Assembly (NCBI GenBank): GCA_038867615.1
Contig: JAWBYA010000004.1
Coordinates: forward strand, 32,001-96,000
From: Sulfolobales archaeon
GTDB lineage: Archaea > Thermoproteota > Thermoprotei_A > Sulfolobales > AG1
Length of the DNA: 64,000 nucleotides
Direction: 5' to 3'
The notes under the pieces are model-generated. The model saw nothing but the letters and a program-made list of their open reading frames with translations. It made no database searches and was not told the DNA's origin. A program made the position numbers and the translations under genes. Each line of letters begins with the position of its first letter. Position 1 is the first letter of the stretch. Of this stretch, positions 26,310-49,864 are shown in pieces.

Positions 26310-27401
26310 TTGCCGAGGATACCTCTTCTAGATCTTCTTAGGAGTTATGGCGGCGATGTTGGGGTTTTCGCAGGCTTTGAGACTATAATGAGCTATGGCG
26401 ATCCCTTCTCCGAGCATTTAGCCGTTAGGAGGGATGCTGCTGTATTTGATATAAGCCATATGGGGAGGATCCTTGTTGAGGGGCCTGACTCGCAAGAACT
26501 CCTAGACATGCTCTTACCAAGAGATCTTGGCGATTCGAAGGATGGCGTCATGATTGGGCCTACGGCTTTTCTCAACGACTCAGGGGGCTTTAAGGATGAT
26601 GTTATGCTATATAGATTTTCAAACGAGAGATGGCTTGTTGTGTGTAACGCTATCAATAGGGAGAAGATCCTTGGGTGGCTTAGGGAGTGGATCTCTAGGA
26701 AGGGTTACAAGGCATCTATAGTTGATCAGACCCTCGAGACGGCTATGCTAGCTATACAGGGGCCTAGGGTGGTCGAATATATATCAAAGATCCCCGGGTT
26801 CTCCGAAGCCTCCTCGCTTAAGCCCCTTGAGTTTCTCGAAAACCTAGATACCTCTCTGGGTAGGGTTGATATTATTAGCAGGAGTGGCTGGACTGGGGAG
26901 GATGGTTTCGAGATTGTTTCGAGGCCAGGTATTGCCGCCGAGATCATTGCTAGGCTTAGAAGCATGGGTGTAGCATTGGCGGGGTTGATTGCCAGGGATA
27001 GTCTGAGGATGGAGATGGGCTATGTATTATATGGTGAGGATATAGATGAGGATATAAACCCATACGAGGCTAGATACTGGGTCTTCACCAGGGGTAAGGA
27101 GGGCTGTATAGGCTGCGATGCCTTGAGAGGGATTGGGAGGAGAGGTGTTGCTAAGGCTAGATATATGTTTAGGCTTAAGAAAGGGCTGAGGGTAATACCA
27201 AGGAGGGGTTATAAGGTGCTATATGAGGGTGAGGAGATAGGCTATATAACCAGCGGTTCATACTCACCCTACCTAGAGAGACCAATAGCTATGGGTTATA
27301 TTAAAAGCAGCCACGCATTGCCAGGGCTTAGTGTTGATATAGAGGTTAGGGGAAAGCTTTATGAGGCGAAAATCCTCGACTACCCCTTGATCAAGAGGTG
27401 A
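26310..27401 (+). CDS. gcvT: Glycine cleavage system aminomethyltransferase T
   Basis: EHLAVR, FDISHMG, SRSGWTGEDGFE, ARDSLRMEMG, TSGSYSP; TTG 26310 after GGGAG SD. Confidence 0.95.
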   Translation: MPRIPLLDLLRSYGGDVGVFAGFETIMSYGDPFSEHLAVRRDAAVFDISHMGRILVEGPDSQELLDMLLPRDLGDSKDGVMIGPTAFLNDSGGFKDDVMLYRFSNERWLVVCNAINREKILGWLREWISRKGYKASIVDQTLETAMLAIQGPRVVEYISKIPGFSEASSLKPLEFLENLDTSLGRVDIISRSGWTGEDGFEIVSRPGIAAEIIARLRSMGVALAGLIARDSLRMEMGYVLYGEDIDEDINPYEARYWVFTRGKEGCIGCDALRGIGRRGVAKARYMFRLKKGLRVIPRRGYKVLYEGEEIGYITSGSYSPYLERPIAMGYIKSSHALPGLSVDIEVRGKLYEAKILDYPLIKR

Positions 27402-27405
27402 TAGC

Positions 27406-27813
27406 TTGAGCGATATAGAGGTTAAGGGATATATTGTTAAGAGGGACAGGCTATACACCGAAACAGACGAGTGGGTAAAGATAGAGGGCGATATAGCGGT
27501 TATCGGGATAACTGATTATGCACAGAAGAAGTTAAAGAACATAATAGGGATAGAGCTCCCATCTAGAGGGACTAGGGTTAGAGCTGGCGACACTATAGGT
27601 ACTATCGAGAGCATAAAGGCTGTCTCAGACATCTATGCCCCTGTGGGCGGCGAGGTTATTGAGGTCAATGAAAGGCTCTCAAACGAGCCGGAATTAATCA
27701 ACCACGAACCCTATGAGGGTGGATGGATGGTTAAGATCAAAATCGCTTCTAAGGATGAGCTTGGAAAACTACTATCTCCCGAGAAATATGCTGAGAAGAT
27801 CTCGAGGGACTAG
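27406..27813 (+). CDS. gcvH: Glycine cleavage system H protein
   Basis: GITDYAQ, IESIKAVSD lipoyl lysine, PYEGGW. Confidence 0.96.
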   Translation: MSDIEVKGYIVKRDRLYTETDEWVKIEGDIAVIGITDYAQKKLKNIIGIELPSRGTRVRAGDTIGTIESIKAVSDIYAPVGGEVIEVNERLSNEPELINHEPYEGGWMVKIKIASKDELGKLLSPEKYAEKISRD

Positions 27814-27815
27814 TT

Positions 27816-28259
27816 TTGGAGGCTCTCAGACTACCCCCAAGGGTGAAGATCCTTGAGGCTTTAGGGGCTATAGCGGATAACAGGGTTAAGATCGTATCAG
27901 ACCGCGAAGCTATAGTAGTAAGCTCAGAAGGCGATAGGAGTTATAAGGTCTACATAGATCTCGAGGAGAAAGCAGCCTATAGCGATGACAATGGAACCAA
28001 GTTTAGAGGATATGTCGGCTACCCAATAGTAGCGGTTCTAATGATAAAAGGCGCTCTACCCTTCGACGCAAAGATCGCTGAAGCACTGAAGGGTGTCAAG
28101 TGGAGACAGCTTAACGAGAAGTATAAGAGCTACGCCATAGTTGAGGATCTCCTGCTCAGAGAACTAAAAACAAGATCCATAGATCCTGAGTATGTGAAAA
28201 ACTATATCTCAAACACAATGTCAGCCCTAGCCAGGCTTGGTTTGAGGAGAAAAACCTAG
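27816..28259 (+). CDS. Conserved hypothetical protein
   Basis: PPRVKILEALGAIAD, SDDNGT, GYVGYP, WRQLNEKY; 2 nt after gcvH. Confidence 0.75.
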   Translation: MEALRLPPRVKILEALGAIADNRVKIVSDREAIVVSSEGDRSYKVYIDLEEKAAYSDDNGTKFRGYVGYPIVAVLMIKGALPFDAKIAEALKGVKWRQLNEKYKSYAIVEDLLLRELKTRSIDPEYVKNYISNTMSALARLGLRRKT

Positions 28260-28489
28260 GATCGCTGACTATTGGTTTGATGAGAGTAGCTCCTATCAAT
28301 GTTCAAGAGATCTTTTCTACTTGGCTTGGAGTATTTCTTTCTCACAGTTAGGACGAAAACAAACCTATAGCGGAAACAATGCTAGCCATGCCGATAAACC
28401 CGATCTTTTCCAAGAAAGAATATAGAGATCTCTCAAGCCGGTTTCAATAATTTAATGCTCTGTGTATCAACATACAATGGTTTGGAGGC

Positions 28490-29539
28490 TTGAAGCTAAA
28501 GATAATATATGATCAGAGGCACTCGCTACACAGAGATCCTTATGGGAGGCATCCAGAAGATCCTAGGAGGGTTGAGGAGGGCCTAGCAGCTCTCAGAGCC
28601 TCTGAGGCATGGGGATATATAGATCTGGTAAACCCATCCGAGCCTGATTATAGTGTTGCTCTCGTGGTACATGATGAGGAGTATGTGGATCGGATTAAAC
28701 AGGAATCCTCGCTCGGTTTCCACTACATAGACCCGGATACGTATGTGAATGAATATACGTTCGAGATAGCATCGATTTTCGCGACAGCAGCGAGAGAAGC
28801 GGCTCTAAGCTCGATCGCTAGTGGAGAGCCCTACTTTATAATGTCTAGACCCGGAGGACATCATGCTGGGAGGAGGGGTAGAGCTATGGGTGCTCCTACC
28901 CTAGGGTTCTGTATATTTGACTATACATCGATTGCTGCGAAGGCTCTGATCGATAAGGGGTACAGGGTTATGATCCTTGATATAGATGCTCACCATGGCA
29001 ACGGATCCCAGGAGATCCTGTGGCTGGAGCCAAGAGCGCTGCATATAGATATACACCAGACAGGCATATACCCGGGTACTGGTGGTATTTGGAGTATTGG
29101 GGGAGGTGTGGCTAGAGGTACAAAGATCAATATACCGCTCGAAAGAGGCTCTGGGGATAGTGTTTACTCATGGATCTTGAGTCGTGTCATAGAGCCTGCC
29201 AGAAAGATCTATGAGCCTGATTTCCTCATAGTGTTTGCCGGTTTTGATGCACATATGGAGGATCCTCTCACAGGTCTTGAGGTTACCGAGGATACCTATG
29301 CAATGTTTGGAAGCTATGTGGGTAGGCTTCTTGAGAGGGGAGAGATAGCTGGTAGCCTCTCAATCCTTGGTGGGGGTTATGGTGAGGGGGCTATTACGAG
29401 CTTTGTAGCATATGTAGAAGCCATGCTGGGGATCAGGGAGCAGCCTATGATAAGTGAGGAGGAGCCCTCCCCAAGCGTGGTTAGTGCAATACCAGGGATC
29501 ATGGATCTCTTAAGAGATGCTGCTACAAGGATCAAGTAG
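28490..29539 (+). CDS. Histone deacetylase/acetoin utilization family Zn-dependent deacylase
   Basis: HPE, RPGGHHAG, GFCIF, DIDAHHGNG, GFDAH.EDPL, GGGY. Confidence 0.93.
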   Translation: MKLKIIYDQRHSLHRDPYGRHPEDPRRVEEGLAALRASEAWGYIDLVNPSEPDYSVALVVHDEEYVDRIKQESSLGFHYIDPDTYVNEYTFEIASIFATAAREAALSSIASGEPYFIMSRPGGHHAGRRGRAMGAPTLGFCIFDYTSIAAKALIDKGYRVMILDIDAHHGNGSQEILWLEPRALHIDIHQTGIYPGTGGIWSIGGGVARGTKINIPLERGSGDSVYSWILSRVIEPARKIYEPDFLIVFAGFDAHMEDPLTGLEVTEDTYAMFGSYVGRLLERGEIAGSLSILGGGYGEGAITSFVAYVEAMLGIREQPMISEEEPSPSVVSAIPGIMDLLRDAATRIK

Positions 29540-43203: not shown

Positions 43204-43306
43204 TGGGGCCGCCGGGATTTGAACCCGGGACCACCAGCGCTCTGGGATCCCTTGCTACGGGGTGCTCACCCCAGGCTGGCATCCTCCCAAGCTAGACTAC
43301 GGCCCC
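43204..43306 (-). tRNA. tRNA-Pro(GGG) with a 29-nt intron at canonical 37/38 (intron 43240-43268); CCA not fully encoded
   Basis: Minus strand GGGGCCG...CGGCCCCA acceptor stem, anticodon arm CCAGC-CTGGGG^C-GCTGG, T arm CCGGG-TTCAAAT-CCCGG; BHB with central helix CTGG/CCAG and two 3-nt bulges. Confidence 0.96.
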
Positions 43307-44017: not shown

Positions 44018-45469
44018 ATGATCAGGATTGTTGTTAAGAGCAGGATAACAGATCTAGGGGTTGTTACAACAAACCATGTGACAGAGATCCGTGTTCCGAA
44101 ACAGATAACCCTGCTTGACTGCATGCTCAAAACAATGGGCTATTCGCTATGTGCAGCATATCTAGTATCGGGGGAACCTAGGGATGATGATATAGTGAGT
44201 GCAGCTGCTAGAAGACTTGTAAGCGATCTATCTAACGATCTCTCAGCATTCTCAGAGGCACATGGTCTTTTCAGAGTTAGCATCAAGTACCCCCTATACA
44301 AAAACCTATACAGGCTTACAAGCAGAGCAGAGATCTACAAACACCTAGCGATCAGATATCTAGAGAACGGGTCCCCGGACGTGGATCTCGCCATCGGGAT
44401 CACTGCTAGGAACGCAGGGTTCAAGATCGATGGTGGCTGGCTCTCCATAGATAAGGAGAAAGGATATCTGGTGAATATAAGGGCCGACTGGCTCAAGACG
44501 ATCCCAGCTATAGAGAGTCTGAAGAGGTCTTTTGATGAGTACCTAAACCCATTGATAAAGATACTGAAGAGCGTTAGAATCCCTCAGCTAGAAGATCCTC
44601 CCCCGCCTGAGGATCTCATAGAGTGCGTGGAGGGCAAGGTTATAGATTATAGATCTATAAGAGACAGGATCTATGATTCCGGAGTGGTTCGAAGCGACAA
44701 AACACTGCCTAAGATCCTCAACGCGCTCTCGACATCGAGGATTGTAAGGGATAGGGAGAGTGGTGTTAAGATGGTTATGAAAAACTTCTCTGACTACGCC
44801 TCGGCTAAATGGCTTCTGATAAGCCCTACTGTGGATCTAATGACCCGTGTGGGTATAAGGCCTAAGGCTCTTCCCAGGGCTAGGTTCTGGAATGAGTATA
44901 GATATACGATAGAGCTTAGGAGGCTCGGTATAGCGACCCAGAGGATCCTCTACATAGATCCATGGTCTCTCACGATGATTAAAGAATACATAGAGGGTGA
45001 GCCTCTGAGTAGGTATGCTATATATGGAGGTATGGTGGACGAGGCTGTCGAGATCTTTATGAGGACAATAGCTAAAATACATAGCAGCGGGGTTTGCTTG
45101 ATAGACACGAAACCAGATAATTTTATAGCCATGGAAGGGAGCGATACTGCTTACTGTATAGATCTTGAGCAGGCTGGAAGGTGTAGGAGGTATAGCCATA
45201 TGGCGTGGGATCTGGTTGTTTTCCCTTATTTCCTCCTGCTCATCGCCCCCAACAATATGGCTAACAGAATACCGCTTATAATCGAGGATAAGATAAGGAT
45301 CTATCTTGATAGTCTTAAACTTGGGGATAAGGCTAAGGCGAGGATTTTGAGCAGCCTGTCCGACCCGAGGATCACATATATATTCCTGGTAGGTTTATCG
45401 ATAATAGGTCCCACGAAGATCAAACCACTACTGGATATATTGAAAAAACTAGGCTCTCTAAAGCCATAG
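44018..45469 (+). CDS. Atypical protein-kinase-like protein (RIO/Bud32/Kdo-like C-terminal domain) with uncharacterised N-terminal region
   Basis: VMKNF, RFWNEY, KEYIEG hinge, IH..G..LIDTKPDNF catalytic loop, IDLEQA, AWDL. Confidence 0.78.
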   Translation: MIRIVVKSRITDLGVVTTNHVTEIRVPKQITLLDCMLKTMGYSLCAAYLVSGEPRDDDIVSAAARRLVSDLSNDLSAFSEAHGLFRVSIKYPLYKNLYRLTSRAEIYKHLAIRYLENGSPDVDLAIGITARNAGFKIDGGWLSIDKEKGYLVNIRADWLKTIPAIESLKRSFDEYLNPLIKILKSVRIPQLEDPPPPEDLIECVEGKVIDYRSIRDRIYDSGVVRSDKTLPKILNALSTSRIVRDRESGVKMVMKNFSDYASAKWLLISPTVDLMTRVGIRPKALPRARFWNEYRYTIELRRLGIATQRILYIDPWSLTMIKEYIEGEPLSRYAIYGGMVDEAVEIFMRTIAKIHSSGVCLIDTKPDNFIAMEGSDTAYCIDLEQAGRCRRYSHMAWDLVVFPYFLLLIAPNNMANRIPLIIEDKIRIYLDSLKLGDKAKARILSSLSDPRITYIFLVGLSIIGPTKIKPLLDILKKLGSLKP

Positions 45470-45535
45470 CCAGCTGTTTCAGGTTTCATGATGGTTTATA
45501 AGGATTGATATTAAACCCGAGTTCTGCAGTAATGT

Positions 45536-45725
45536 AACCTTATATAAGCTCTTATATTTCACTGGGATGCCCGCCCAACAATGAGGGTGGGATAGAGACC
45601 CGAGTGGGCGGGGTAAATACAGAGAGATCCAGGATGTGGGCCCCAATGAAAGGAGCCCTGAGGCCAATGAAGCCAAGGGAAGAGCAGTTGGTATAAAAAT
45701 CAACCGCAATGAAGCCCGAACCCCT
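45536..45725 (+). mobile_element. Mini-element A: putative internally deleted tnpB (IS200/IS605 or IS607 type) remnant / omega-RNA-like ncRNA
   Basis: Reads MPAQ/NEGGIETRVGGVNT (frameshifted) joined to RMWAPMKGALRPMKPR, recalled as crenarchaeal TnpB N- and C-terminal peptides; 36/48 nt identity to 48657-48704; K-turn and subterminal hairpin; boundaries approximate. Confidence 0.6.
45540..45547 (+). promoter_or_regulatory. TATA box upstream of mini-element A
   Basis: TTATATAA ~20 nt upstream of ATG 45567 and the GC-rich K-turn hairpin; no intact + strand ORF follows. Confidence 0.55.
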
Positions 45726-46132
45726 AATAAGTTCTTCTACACCACGCCATCACTTTCCTTCAAATAATATCACAAACATGGCAGGGATCTTCCACATATT
45801 CCCAGATATATGCTGCGATAGAGGATGAACCGATCTCTTATCGATGCTTGGGGAAGATTTATTAGCTTTGATCTATATGGTTTTGGTTACTGGTTTGTTT
45901 CAATATTGGCTCTGAGTGGTGATGGAGGCATAGCCCCAGCCATTAAGAGGATAGTTTCTCAAATCTAGACGAGAGCTTTGGTGTTATACTTAACAGCTAC
46001 TCATAAACCAACAGAGGTAAAGAGATCTCTATCGGCTAGGTTTAAGTCCCTAGATACGGATGAAAACAAAGAGTATCAAACATCCAAGGATAAAACGGTT
46101 GCTAGCCTGTAATCATAAGTGATCGATGGTTA

Positions 46133-47653
46133 CTATTGGCGGCTATTTCTTATCATCGATACTAGTTCCCTGAATCTCTCGTTAAATGTATTTATATCCT
46201 CTTCATTCCTACTGCTTGTCACATATTCTCCAGATCTTGAGAGTAAGGACCAGAGATCGCTGTATAGGTTCTTCACCCTCTCTAGTTCTCTTCTAGCTCT
46301 ACCACATGCTCCAGTCTCGTTTCCTCTGCATAGGTGTTCGAACCTCTCCTGATCAACGATCTTCAGCTCTCCATGTACTATGGAGGCGTCTAGCTCTAGG
46401 TCTAGATAGGATATCTTGATCATTACGTCATATATTACAGCTGGCTTCGTGTTTATATTGATATAAACTCCCTTGAGCTCTGAGTTATATCTATAATAGG
46501 CATGGATTGTTAACCAGCTATTCTCACCGATTATGGTGAGGGCCTTATCATCTTTCTCTTTCTGGATCCCCAGGCCGTCATATAACCCAGAGCCTGTTAT
46601 GCTTCTCACCACTCCTAGCCATAGCCCGTCTTCAAGGTTTAGGTATGTTTTAAGCCTACCCCTTCCAAGAATCCTTGGTTTCTCGAAGGGTCTGTTATGG
46701 ATTATGAGGATCTCGGCCCCGCTTGATAGCCTCTCAACAAGATGTTTCCTAAGCCCGTTCAATATAGCGTTGGGAGGGGCTCCTGATGCTGCTATGCTGT
46801 CTAGAAGATCGGCGGTATCTGGGTTATCTGAAAAAGCTTTTATCACGTGGTGCATTGGCGTGGTAGGGGTTACAAGAGATCTTACCCTATCCAGCTCGTC
46901 CATATCTTCTGGGGAGAGGTGTATAAAGGCTATCTTCTCACCCACATATAGTGGTTCCATACTCGCTGCAGAGTTGGCCTTGGTAGAGACTTCTGTTAAT
47001 GTTCTCTTTAAAGTGTCTAGCTCGCCCAAGAGTTCTTTTAGTGATGCTCTTGAGGCTGAGCTTCTCCAGGAAACCCCCAGCCCTTGTTTTAAAACCATGT
47101 CAGATATACCTCTAAGCTCGAGGATAACGTCGGGATCCCTTATATGTTCTGAGATCTTCTCGACAGGCTTGTCGAGAAGGATCATATACCTGCCAACGAT
47201 ATATATGCCTCTATCTATTAGAGGCGTTCCATCTCCTCTATATCCGATTATAGTGGCAACCAGATCCTCACCTTTATAGCAAGTCCTATCCTTGAGATAG
47301 CCATGAACACCTAGGGGTGTTTCTACATAGCATCCACCCATATCCTGGGAAGAAACCCTAGCCCTGAAAACCATGTATAATGGTAAGGGGCCTCGGTAGA
47401 GGGATGTTTTTACAACACTCGATATAGCCTTGAAAGCCTCTTCGACAGCGCCAGGAACCCCTATTATTACTAAAAGGCTCTTATTATCATCGCTATCCTT
47501 TACAGTAACATCCACGGGTCCCTCTGACTCTGTGTTAAGCCTCCTAGAGAGCTTCTCACTAATATCTCCTGGTTTAAAACCATAATCGATCAGAATCTTT
47601 GATATCGCTGTAGCATAGATCCCCCTAACCCTGAAGCCATAGGGCTGCTCCAT
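46133..47653 (-). CDS. FAU-1-like RNA-binding ribonuclease (RNase E/G-like plus DUF402)
   Basis: RVRGIYATAI, ISEHIRD, WRSSA, LDRVRSLVTPT..HH, YDGLG, GVYININT, YLDLELD. Confidence 0.88.
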   Translation of the reverse strand: MEQPYGFRVRGIYATAISKILIDYGFKPGDISEKLSRRLNTESEGPVDVTVKDSDDNKSLLVIIGVPGAVEEAFKAISSVVKTSLYRGPLPLYMVFRARVSSQDMGGCYVETPLGVHGYLKDRTCYKGEDLVATIIGYRGDGTPLIDRGIYIVGRYMILLDKPVEKISEHIRDPDVILELRGISDMVLKQGLGVSWRSSASRASLKELLGELDTLKRTLTEVSTKANSAASMEPLYVGEKIAFIHLSPEDMDELDRVRSLVTPTTPMHHVIKAFSDNPDTADLLDSIAASGAPPNAILNGLRKHLVERLSSGAEILIIHNRPFEKPRILGRGRLKTYLNLEDGLWLGVVRSITGSGLYDGLGIQKEKDDKALTIIGENSWLTIHAYYRYNSELKGVYININTKPAVIYDVMIKISYLDLELDASIVHGELKIVDQERFEHLCRGNETGACGRARRELERVKNLYSDLWSLLSRSGEYVTSSRNEEDINTFNERFRELVSMIRNSRQ

Positions 47654-47662
47654 AGCTATCCC

Positions 47663-47947
47663 TTAATCCTTAACAGTCTCAAGCCTTGTCGCTATCTGCC
47701 ATAGGAGGTTCCTGGCATGAGTGGGCATGTTGGGATCCTGGCTAACCTCGTCGAGAATGCTAACAGCGTTCGCAGCCCTCACGCCTGGTGTGAGGCTCTG
47801 TTCCTGCAGGATCTTTATAGCCTGTATAGCTGCTCTCCTAATATTTCTGGGAACCTGGGAGTCGTTAACAATACCCATTAGAAGAACCAGGGCTTCTTTA
47901 ATCTTAGCCTCGTTCTGAGCCTTCTTCTGAGCCTCAATGCTGCTCAT
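47663..47947 (-). CDS. UPF0147 family protein
   Basis: [30 protein letters not shown]. Confidence 0.92.
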
Positions 47948-48006
47948 AACACCACCCCCAGATCTTCTCTCTATATCATCTATACAATAGAGCAGTTTTA
48001 TTTTTA

Positions 48007-48540
48007 ATGCCTCCCACCTACCAAGGATTGGGGATCACATACTCAATGAATGCTGGAGAGGCCATAAGCTGCTCCGGAAACCCCCCTGAGGATCTTTTGA
48101 ACGAGATCTATGGGGTCGAGCTCACATGCTTCAAGGACCCATACCCACCGAGACTCCTCCTATACTATGTAAGACTGGCACCAGATCTATTCATAGTATG
48201 CAGATCAAATGAAAAGATCGTGGGATACGCGATAGGAGTTATAGAGAACTATGGGAGAACAGGCCATGTAGTCTCCATATGCGTCCACAAAGACCATAGG
48301 AGAAAAGGCGTTGGGAGGATCTTGATGGAGACTCTTGAGAAGCTATTCATAGAAAAAGGAGCCATCGAAGCAAAACTCGAGGTGAGGGTGAGCAACGAGC
48401 CAGCAATAAACCTCTATAGATCCATGGGCTACACCATAGCAAACATATATCACAGCTACTATAGCGATGGTGAGGATGCATATATAATGATCAAGAGCCT
48501 CTCAAAAACCCGAAATGTTAGCCCACGATATATTTCATAA
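48007..48540 (+). CDS. RimI/Ard1-type N-acetyltransferase (likely start ATG 48046)
   Basis: [39 protein letters not shown]. Confidence 0.92.
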
Positions 48541-48704
48541 AGACCCCGAGCAGAGAGGTAGAAACAGGATGCGATGGTTTCTCCACAGCAGCGGGCCAGA
48601 GACAAACTATGAGGAGGAGTTGTGGGTTGGGGTTACACTGAACGGTGTGGAGGTTGAGGATGATAACCCCGATGAAAGAAGTCCTGATGCCTATGAAACC
48701 TAAG
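48515..48704 (+). mobile_element. Mini-element B: second, more degenerate tnpB-end remnant
   Basis: AGACCCCGAG..GGTAGAAACAG resembles the 5' part of element A; encodes RMRWFLHS..ELWVGVTLNG then (shifted) MITPMKEVLMPMKPK; 75% identity to A over 48 nt; boundaries approximate. Confidence 0.58.
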
Positions 48705-48763
48705 CTCTACACTATGGCTTAGATCGTCTGGTTCTCTTCATATATTCTCCAGATTCTCAAGCC

Positions 48764-49864
48764 CTAGATCTTTGATAAAAGGTCTATTATATAGTTTATA
48801 TCGTCTTCTCTTAACGCTGGGTGTATGGGGAGGCTCAGGATCCTTTGAGAAGCTTTGTAGGAGTTGGAGCAGCAGTTTTTATAACCCAGCTTTCTGTATA
48901 GTGGTTGCATGTGTATTGGTAAGGGATAGTGGATCGCTGTCTCGACACCGTGTTCTCTGAGGTATGATGCTAGCTCGTCTCTAGACACTGGGGCGTCGTC
49001 CTCTAGCATTACTACGTATTGGTGATATACATGCCTAGCCCATGGCTTCTCTATAGGCGGTCTAAGCCATCCAAGCTTCTTTATACCCTGGGTCATTTTC
49101 TCAGCATTTCTTCTCCTGATCTCGTTAAGCCTATCAAGCTTCTCAAGCTGTGAGATCCCGAGGGCTGCCTGGATAGATGTCATTCTATAGTTACCCCCAA
49201 GCTCTATATGGATATACTTAGCCTCCTGACCATGGTTTCTCAAAAGCTCAATCCTTCTCGCAAGGTCATCGCTATTTGTTGTAACCATGCCCCCCTCGCC
49301 TGTAGTCATGTTCTTCGTAGCATAGAAGCTAAAAGCCCCCAGATCTCCGAGAGACCCGCACTTCATACCCTTATACAGAGCACCGTGGGCTTGGGCAGCA
49401 TCTTCTATGACGAAAACACCATGATCCCTAGCGATCCTTACTATCGGATCCATATCGGCTGGATGTCCATAAAGGTGCACTGGGATCACAGCCCTAGTCC
49501 TCCTCGAGATCGAATCCTCAACGCAAGATGTATCTAGAGAGAAAATCTCAAGATCTATATCGCAAAGCACAGGCCTGGCACCAAGCATCAAGACCGTATT
49601 AGCTGTAGCAATAAATGTGAAACTTGGTACGATAACCTCATCACCAGGCTTAACCCCAATAGCCCTGAGGGAAAGCTCTAAAGCAACAGTACCGTTGGTC
49701 ACTGCAAGAGCCCTCTTAACACCAACGTATTTGGCAAACCTGGTCTCGAACTCCTCCACAAGGGGGCCGTGGGCGAGCCAGCCGCTTCTCATTGCCTTGA
49801 CAACCATCTCCACATCATTCTCGTCTATATGGGGTACGGATATCTTTATGCTCCTCCTATCCAT
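48764..49864 (-). CDS. DegT/DnrJ/EryC1/StrS family PLP-dependent sugar aminotransferase
   Basis: NGTVAL, PVHLYG, EDAAQAHG, FSFYATKNMTTGEGG, LSLPIHP. Confidence 0.94.
   Translation of the reverse strand: MDRRSIKISVPHIDENDVEMVVKAMRSGWLAHGPLVEEFETRFAKYVGVKRALAVTNGTVALELSLRAIGVKPGDEVIVPSFTFIATANTVLMLGARPVLCDIDLEIFSLDTSCVEDSISRRTRAVIPVHLYGHPADMDPIVRIARDHGVFVIEDAAQAHGALYKGMKCGSLGDLGAFSFYATKNMTTGEGGMVTTNSDDLARRIELLRNHGQEAKYIHIELGGNYRMTSIQAALGISQLEKLDRLNEIRRRNAEKMTQGIKKLGWLRPPIEKPWARHVYHQYVVMLEDDAPVSRDELASYLREHGVETAIHYPLPIHMQPLYRKLGYKNCCSNSYKASQRILSLPIHPALREDDINYIIDLLSKI

Follow-up and report, generated by a model that had tools for sequence, protein, structure and literature searches.

The window analysed here is a 64,000-nucleotide stretch (C4:32001-96000) of the genome of a Sulfolobales archaeon, an assembly of 2,221,398 bases in 28 contigs that is 94.44% complete (G000 below, its contigs written C1, C4 and so on). 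On its forward strand it carries two related sequences derived from an insertion sequence (IS) of the tnpB type. Element 1 (45466-45724, +; 259 nt) is very probably one undamaged member of a family of palindrome-associated transposable elements (PATEs) of the IS200/IS605 type. These numerous mini-elements encode no protein; they would descend from a tnpB-only (IS1341-like) IS that lost its interior, and the deleted form then multiplied. Element 2 (about 48541-48700, +) is an old relic of the same family. A preliminary description of this DNA had picked out 45631-45678 and 48657-48704 as parts of two guide cassettes, and these stretches do match in an ungapped alignment, at 36 of 48 nt (binomial probability ~0.03 when every pair in the window is counted), each preceded, as was stated, by an AGACCC(C)GAG...GGTA.A.ACAG block. 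The stretches are real, but they captured only the middle of element 1 and did not delimit either element as above.

The limits of element 1, a complete copy of short subtype S1, were set from homology boundaries, from an alignment of 29 copies and from the pairing of its ends by nhmmer. Blastn homology to other copies runs from 45461-45467 to 45722-45727, the nhmmer left/right pair lies at C4:77467-77724 in the genome, and the termini read from the sequence are ATAGCCAGCTG at the start and GAAGCCCGAACCCC at the end. Directly 5' of the element stands AGCC (45462-45465, +), the presumed target motif and transposon-adjacent motif (TAM), as judged from the junction logo and from the empty sites described below. 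A left-end segment common to full-length tnpB IS (45466-45515, +), delimited by comparing a long-form query with the full-length loci, is followed by an archaeal-type TATA-box-like motif (TTATATAAG, 45540-45548, +) and then by a PATE-specific hairpin module (45570-45612, +; CCCGCCCA ... TGGGCGGG, with inner GGGT/ACCC). A scan of 45440-45750 for inverted repeats detected an 8-nt perfect inverted repeat in this module and no pair linking both termini, indicating that there are no terminal inverted repeats. At the S1 deletion junction (45635-45640, +), where GGATGT is joined to GGGCCCC, ~100 nt of the long form, helices 1 and 2 included, are absent. Element 1 keeps helix 3 of the omega-RNA-like region (45638-45658, +; GGGCCCC AATGAAA GGAGCCC, with a single C.A mismatch), helix 4, the right-end subterminal hairpin (45684-45707, +; GCAGTTGGT ... 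ATCAACCGC), and a 17-nt tail, that is, 86 nt of a structured region of ~190 nt. The flank TAATAAGTTCTTCTACACCA (45725-45744, +) would by its position be the candidate guide, if an omega RNA is made. Since only these 86 nt of scaffold are retained, it is doubtful that they and the 5' hairpin could load TnpB or serve as a guide. The open reading frames of element 1 encode only 30-76 amino acids (aa), and the one tested against Pfam had no match.

Among 24 sequencing runs listed for this region there was no RNA run. DNA contigs from four hot-spring/sediment runs (four studies) were also compared with 44800-49200. The assemblies break inside element 1, where the summed contig depth is ~20x that of the flanks, as expected of a repeat. 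Error-free contigs of run X2 (44800-45489 and 45696-49200; 0 differences) span both element 1 junctions. No empty-site joint at element 1 was reported in the contigs of the four runs; a joint 45515>45674 occurred in one run with just 25 letters on its shorter side and was not used.

Element 1 belongs to a large family. Blastn of element 1 against its own genome gave 76 merged loci, and a census was made by nhmmer with profiles of the 3' and 5' regions built from our own alignments. The 3'-region profile had 98 matches, 75 of which reach the right-end terminus, and the 5'-region profile had 77, with 68 at the left-end terminus. These formed 54 left/right pairs, comprising 51 of 180-360 nt, two full-length ones (1563 and 1646 nt) and one pairing artefact, and left 22 solo right and 18 solo left ends. 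The 2.2-Mb genome thus holds ~51 complete mini-element copies, with size clusters at ~250-263 nt and 335-360 nt. When 29 complete copies were aligned with their flanks, the ends were sharp (left (G/A)TAGCCAGCTG..., right ...ATGAAGCCCGAACCCC) and the flanks unrelated. Seventeen of these copies are of the long form, four are S1 (C1:253905, C5:28442, C5:97161 and element 1 itself, here C4:77455), six S2 and two S3, each subtype with its own shared junction. Because different loci share junctions, the deleted forms must have multiplied after deletion rather than having been deleted locus by locus. The residual tnpB frame is open to its end in only 11 of 47 mini-element rows, which we therefore take as non-coding, and variability by codon position among these rows (0.080, 0.085 and 0.116 at positions 1-3) points to a weak coding trace at most.

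The parent could be identified in the same genome. The Cas12f1-like TNB domain (PF07282) occurs at five places in G000. One of them lies in an open frame on C1 for a 457-aa TnpB with the Pfam TNB domain, and this intact parent IS (C1:11138-12700) encodes TnpB only; a second parent copy is broken into frames of 188 aa and 147 aa, and the remaining two TnpB families of the genome have unrelated ends. The 457-aa protein gave weak matches to solved TnpB/Cas12f chains, in its C-terminal part only. We take it to have the D...E...D and CxxC...CxxC motifs, their positions being assumed from general knowledge of TnpB rather than from alignment to a solved protein. Its C-terminus reads ...KMWGFPHSNEPEEIYEGELWVGVTLNGWRPRIWAPMIGALRPMKPREERLISFDINRYEARTP..., a degenerate version of which is encoded by the 3' part of the mini-elements, and the two blocks in the window are homologous to the C-terminal coding end (...KMWGFPHSNEPEEIYEGELWVGVTLNGWRPRIWAPMIGALRPMKPREERL..INRYEARTP), bearing out the C-terminal TnpB resemblance noted in the preliminary description. 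Of a long-form query, only positions 3-51 and 165/170-357 had matches in full-length IS loci; what the mini-elements share with full-length tnpB IS in five genomes is ~50 nt of left end and the last ~190 nt. The full-length IS also has AGCC at its left junction, and G002 and G003, the two sister genomes, each have one intact parent copy (90% identity). The intact tnpB frame (L001 565-1938, equivalent to C1:11373-12746) meets no stop within the IS and continues for 46 nt beyond the right end at C1:12700, so that the C-terminus of TnpB depends on the insertion site.

Family members with a full left end were present in G000, G002 and G003. Any match to the family was found in 10 of 31 related genomes (G000 included), and elsewhere than in these three only the right-end part was seen among the matches listed. 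To follow insertion, 38 occupied loci from G002/G003 were compared with G000, and 13 junction pairs were inspected base by base. Seven of them are clean empty sites in G000 (L040, L044, L054, L043, L058, L048 and L042), in four the sequences had diverged too far for the junction to be located, and two are internal variants of shared copies; insertions are therefore polymorphic between sister species. In all seven clean cases the element had inserted directly 3' of a pre-existing GCC without target duplication; a 2-bp crossover duplication, considered as a variant, was ruled out by the counts of the C-runs in L054 and L043. Across 46 unique left junctions, positions -3 to -1 are G in 43, C in 41 and C in 43, with a base other than G at -4 in 45, giving HGCC, and the 54 unique right junctions show no constraint in the 22 nt after the right end. 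Insertion 3' of GCC without duplication and the lack of terminal inverted repeats are hallmarks of the IS200/IS605 type and of the PATEs derived from it, as known from Haloquadratum (PMC3119063). The element 1 locus yields no empty site, because in the sister genomes the left flank stops exactly at the junction and synteny on the right is broken.

The mini-elements carry more than the two ends of the parent. In 44 distinct copies the TATA columns do not vary at all, against a mean column identity of 78%. The same motif of 14-15 nt, (T/G)AACATTATATAAG, is found at 27 nt upstream of the ATG of tnpB in three intact IS copies (G000, G002 and G003), suggesting that the box of the mini-elements is the tnpB promoter carried over and that it may still act as one. 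The usual archaeal TATA-to-start spacing would put the transcript start at about the hairpin. The preliminary description had read the 5' block as the N-terminus of TnpB, and this does not hold. The cognate TnpB starts MENLLETREVV and the other families start MVGCFPQ/MSGCIYK and MRGNQYK, and the block (GGGATGCCCGCCCAACAATGAGGGT...GGGCGGG) contains in-frame stops, forms a hairpin with an 8-bp perfect stem and has blastn matches only inside mini-elements (35/35 hits). In 44 copies, 93.4% of the cells of this module are paired, compared with 21-57% in slid controls. The module, of ~75 nt in all, is missing from the parent IS. Two copies (C2:300390-300679 and C1:163305-163596) are without it, their promoter region being joined near the tnpB ATG to ...GGGGGTTTCCCC; since these module-less copies resemble IS that have simply undergone deletion, the module may be a later addition.

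The retained 3' region has features of a structured RNA. In TnpB systems the omega RNA covers the tnpB 3' end, with the adjoining flank as its guide; here, likewise, the 3' region overlaps the tnpB 3' end and stops at the right-end boundary, by homology, in element 1 and the long forms. The last ~190 nt were aligned for 62 distinct copies, 47 of them mini-elements and the other 15 taken from IS that are full-length or more distant. This alignment supports four helices with 93.3% of cells paired, compared with 34-51% when partners were slid. Cells with double changes numbered 54 versus 21.1 +/- 6.6 in shuffles (0/500 as high), a control that related sequences can beat even where there is no structure. 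Changes on both sides were seen at three of the seven pairs of helix 3 (GGGCYCC/GGRGCCC; 90.5% of cells paired) and at four of the nine pairs of helix 4 (92.5%); the long-range helix 1 (CCACAGC/GCTGTGG) is 98.6% paired with wobble changes only. Used by itself, RNAalifold found a consensus of modest strength (-12.93 kcal/mol) in which 6 of the 21 pairs are compensatory.

Element 2 is a long-form fragment truncated at both ends, consisting of part of the hairpin module followed by the tnpB C-terminal region to ...ATGAAACCTAAG. It is 72-78% identical to long-form copies by blastn, and 23 of the 29 matches end at 48700; in a blastn of a wider stretch the homology began at about 48562. The left end, the TATA box and the right-end hairpin with the terminus are gone, the last being the ~45 nt that would adjoin the guide, so that element 2 stops ~45 nt short of the right-end boundary and does not have the position of an omega RNA. 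At the same site in G003 it is 79.3% identical (130/164), similar to the adjoining spacer (81.4%), with the flanking genes at 96.6% and 95.8%. The position is occupied in G002 by another gene, of 365 aa, on the opposite strand (L114 332-1426 (-), C23 of G002). Element 2 is an immobile, promoter-less relic whose decay keeps pace with that of the adjoining spacer. Given the loss of its ends and promoter and this spacer-like decay, it fits the outcome that the preliminary description had named as an inert IS scar.

The reading that we prefer, with element 1 as one intact copy of a multiplied PATE, suggests how the family might persist. A Y1 transposase acting on single strands, one that did not turn up in this assembly, would move the copies in trans. 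The retained TATA box would drive transcription from the PATE-specific hairpin across the omega-RNA scaffold and into the flank, where the RNA would end, so that long-form copies may yield TnpB-less guide RNAs. The single TnpB would load these RNAs and cut the emptied donor site, restoring the copy, and the role of the elements would be selfish retention and not the targeting of other loci. The published homing model (PMC10055086), in which the guide is the element's own flank and the target the emptied donor site, fits this anatomy.

Several results weigh against this reading, besides the limit of the shuffle control given above. The Y1 transposase domain PF01797 was not found in G000, G002 or G003 (assemblies 86-94% complete); it is present in 3 of 14 genomes of the host's family, and the intact TnpA of one other genome, G004, sits in an IS without any similarity to the PATE ends. 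The sole resolvase of G000 has no related end nearby either. The end hairpins of single copies, folded as DNA, were not stabler than shuffles (z = 0.41, 0.25, -0.85 and -0.56), and a candidate left-end palindrome, GGTTTA..TAAACC, is weak. The hairpin module shows no covariation (237/500 shuffles as high), nine compensatory cells at two helix 4 pairs stem from diverged full-length lineages, and Rfam has no family matching the element region or its RNA, at gathering thresholds or at E <= 5.

How far the flanks act as guides bears on the proposal of the preliminary description, that both elements are working guide cassettes produced by repeated, independent deletions at each locus, with flanks that guide a TnpB encoded elsewhere to host, virus or plasmid targets. 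Much of what it supposed was found: an intact cognate tnpB elsewhere in the genome (the 457-aa TnpB on C1), retention of the tnpB 3'/right-end region where omega RNAs lie, a conserved 3' scaffold region, and dispersed copies whose flanks differ from one to the next. The 20-nt flank of element 1 even has exact matches in four IMG/VR contigs, three of them mutually related. Those matches, however, extend over only 20-21 nt and have CCTT or TCAG in front of them rather than HGCC, and the first 16 nt of flank of 34 guides in G000 had zero off-site matches in the genome at 0 mismatches; with 1-2 mismatches there were 124, compared with ~40 expected by our own estimate under uniform composition. Internal deletion of a tnpB IS holds as the origin, but junctions common to 4/29 and 6/29 copies speak against separate deletion at each locus. 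The scaffold is likewise kept only in part, as the 86 nt of element 1, and element 2 is without promoter, left end and the last ~45 nt by the guide, and evolves like spacer. The proposal is in our view highly improbable, and nothing in the genomic and viral matches suggests that the flanks guide TnpB to other loci.

Another explanation would dispense with the RNA altogether: the elements may be purely parasitic DNA, with ends that suffice for transposition, the 3' tnpB region kept as cis sites for the transposase and the RNA without a role. The helix nearest the end is where the hairpin bound by the transposase would be looked for in an IS200/IS605 element, which would account for helix 4, and the residual frame is seldom open. 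Short subtypes missing different helices have still spread, and since those without helices 1-2 or helix 3 multiplied, the RNA structure is dispensable for mobility, a point that tells against our preferred reading as well. This explanation sits poorly, however, with helix 3 and the long-range helix 1, which lie 65-170 nt from the end, beyond known transposase sites, and are nevertheless paired in 90.5% and 98.6% of cells, and with a TATA box that is invariant where the mean column is not. We hold it to be possible though doubtful. The TATA box, directed through the right end into the flank, could also suggest that the elements act mainly as portable outward promoters or small-RNA genes altering the expression of neighbouring host genes; element 1 provides the stop codon of the upstream gene and is aimed at the 3' end of a convergent gene (46133-47653). 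Copy-specific conservation at shared sites, in itself uninformative, was no higher than in the flanks, and we consider such a role very unlikely. A stronger version of the preferred reading would make the family a guide-only hyperparasite, in which ~50 mini-genes with promoter and 5' hairpin make omega RNAs that borrow a single-copy TnpB for retention, while moving in three sister genomes without a detectable Y1 transposase. That version, which we judge unlikely, would imply mobilisation that is independent of TnpA or supplied externally by a virus or plasmid.

PATEs as a kind are already known from Haloquadratum walsbyi (Dyall-Smith et al. 2011, PMC3119063), as is the idea of TnpB acting in trans (Meers et al. 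2023 preprint, PMC10055086). The H. walsbyi elements, as described in that article, are free of transposase, lack terminal inverted repeats and target duplication, and show strain-specific insertions although no intact IS200-type transposase is present, which is the same paradox as here. The present family resembles them in having a probable near-terminal palindrome and in far outnumbering its parent; it differs in its host, a hyperthermophilic archaeon and not a haloarchaeon, and in having a tnpB-promoter-like TATA box, a ~75-nt module absent from the parent and an HGCC target. The discussion of Meers et al. states that PATEs often encode omega RNAs needing TnpB in trans. The PATE-like elements of Geobacillus stearothermophilus treated in that preprint are, like ours, minimal non-autonomous IS200/IS605 derivatives without protein genes, and its homing/retention model, with flank as guide and target motif as TAM, would have its parallel here. 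In G. stearothermophilus, by the same account, there is a cognate TnpA and omega RNAs appear in small-RNA data, whereas the present family is archaeal, is known from DNA alone with no TnpA found, and has ~51 PATEs per one intact tnpB. [quoted passage not shown]

Among tnpB-only IS200/IS605 elements (the IS1341 group), the parent is typical in encoding only TnpB and in having a structured region over the tnpB 3' end that reaches the right-end boundary; it departs from them in that its frame, without a stop inside the IS, ends in the flank, and in that no Rfam model matches. The mini-elements are short, non-coding, high in copy number and presumably mobilised in trans, as classical MITEs are, but lack the terminal inverted repeats and usual target duplications of the latter. 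What is new is the lineage, the exact anatomy (a promoter carried over, an extra hairpin and the HGCC target), the ~51:1 ratio and recent mobility without detectable TnpA. For the window itself this is ordinary, amounting to one mobile-element copy and one relic. The family is a clean, sharply delimited archaeal case of a known phenomenon, for which exact ends, target motif, subtypes and parent IS are at hand, together with a model of how the RNA region folds. Two questions could be tried on it: whether IS605 derivatives without protein genes use TnpB in trans, and by what route tnpB-only elements, and those derived from them, are mobile in genomes that show no TnpA gene. Should the GC-rich HGCC prove to be the TAM of this thermophilic protein, it would be relevant to TAM diversity.

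The resolvase of G000 is a 205-aa frame near a contig end (C23:6589-7203) with the Pfam Resolvase domain of a small serine recombinase. It was considered as an IS607-type transposase and rejected, given the lack of related ends nearby and an apparent C-terminal helix-turn-helix; from its domain order we take it to be of the ordinary invertase type.

One copy shared with a sister genome varied internally. Between C7:20145-20494 of G000 and locus L024 of G003, the flanks are identical at 1200/1200 positions and the last 190 nt of the element differ at 14, mostly in the loop of the right-end hairpin, which may reflect conversion between copies or an unstable loop. Stretches of the 69-kb contig C7 (for example C7:19439-21195, 27068-28816 and 66249-67987) are 98.9-100% identical to contigs of G002/G003, compared with ~69-97% for the other regions compared; C7 could represent a mobile replicon common to these genomes, a recent transfer or a problem of binning.

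Upstream of element 1 lies a gene for 483 aa (44018-45469), for which the element supplies the last base of the final codon and the TAG stop (45464-45469). The orthologues in G002 and G003 end in ...KL* and ...KP*, and the DNA downstream of them is unrelated. Although ARAGORN reported zero tRNA genes across the whole window, Rfam RF00005 (53.2 bits) matched a 103-nt tRNA gene at 43204-43306 (-), which probably contains an intron.

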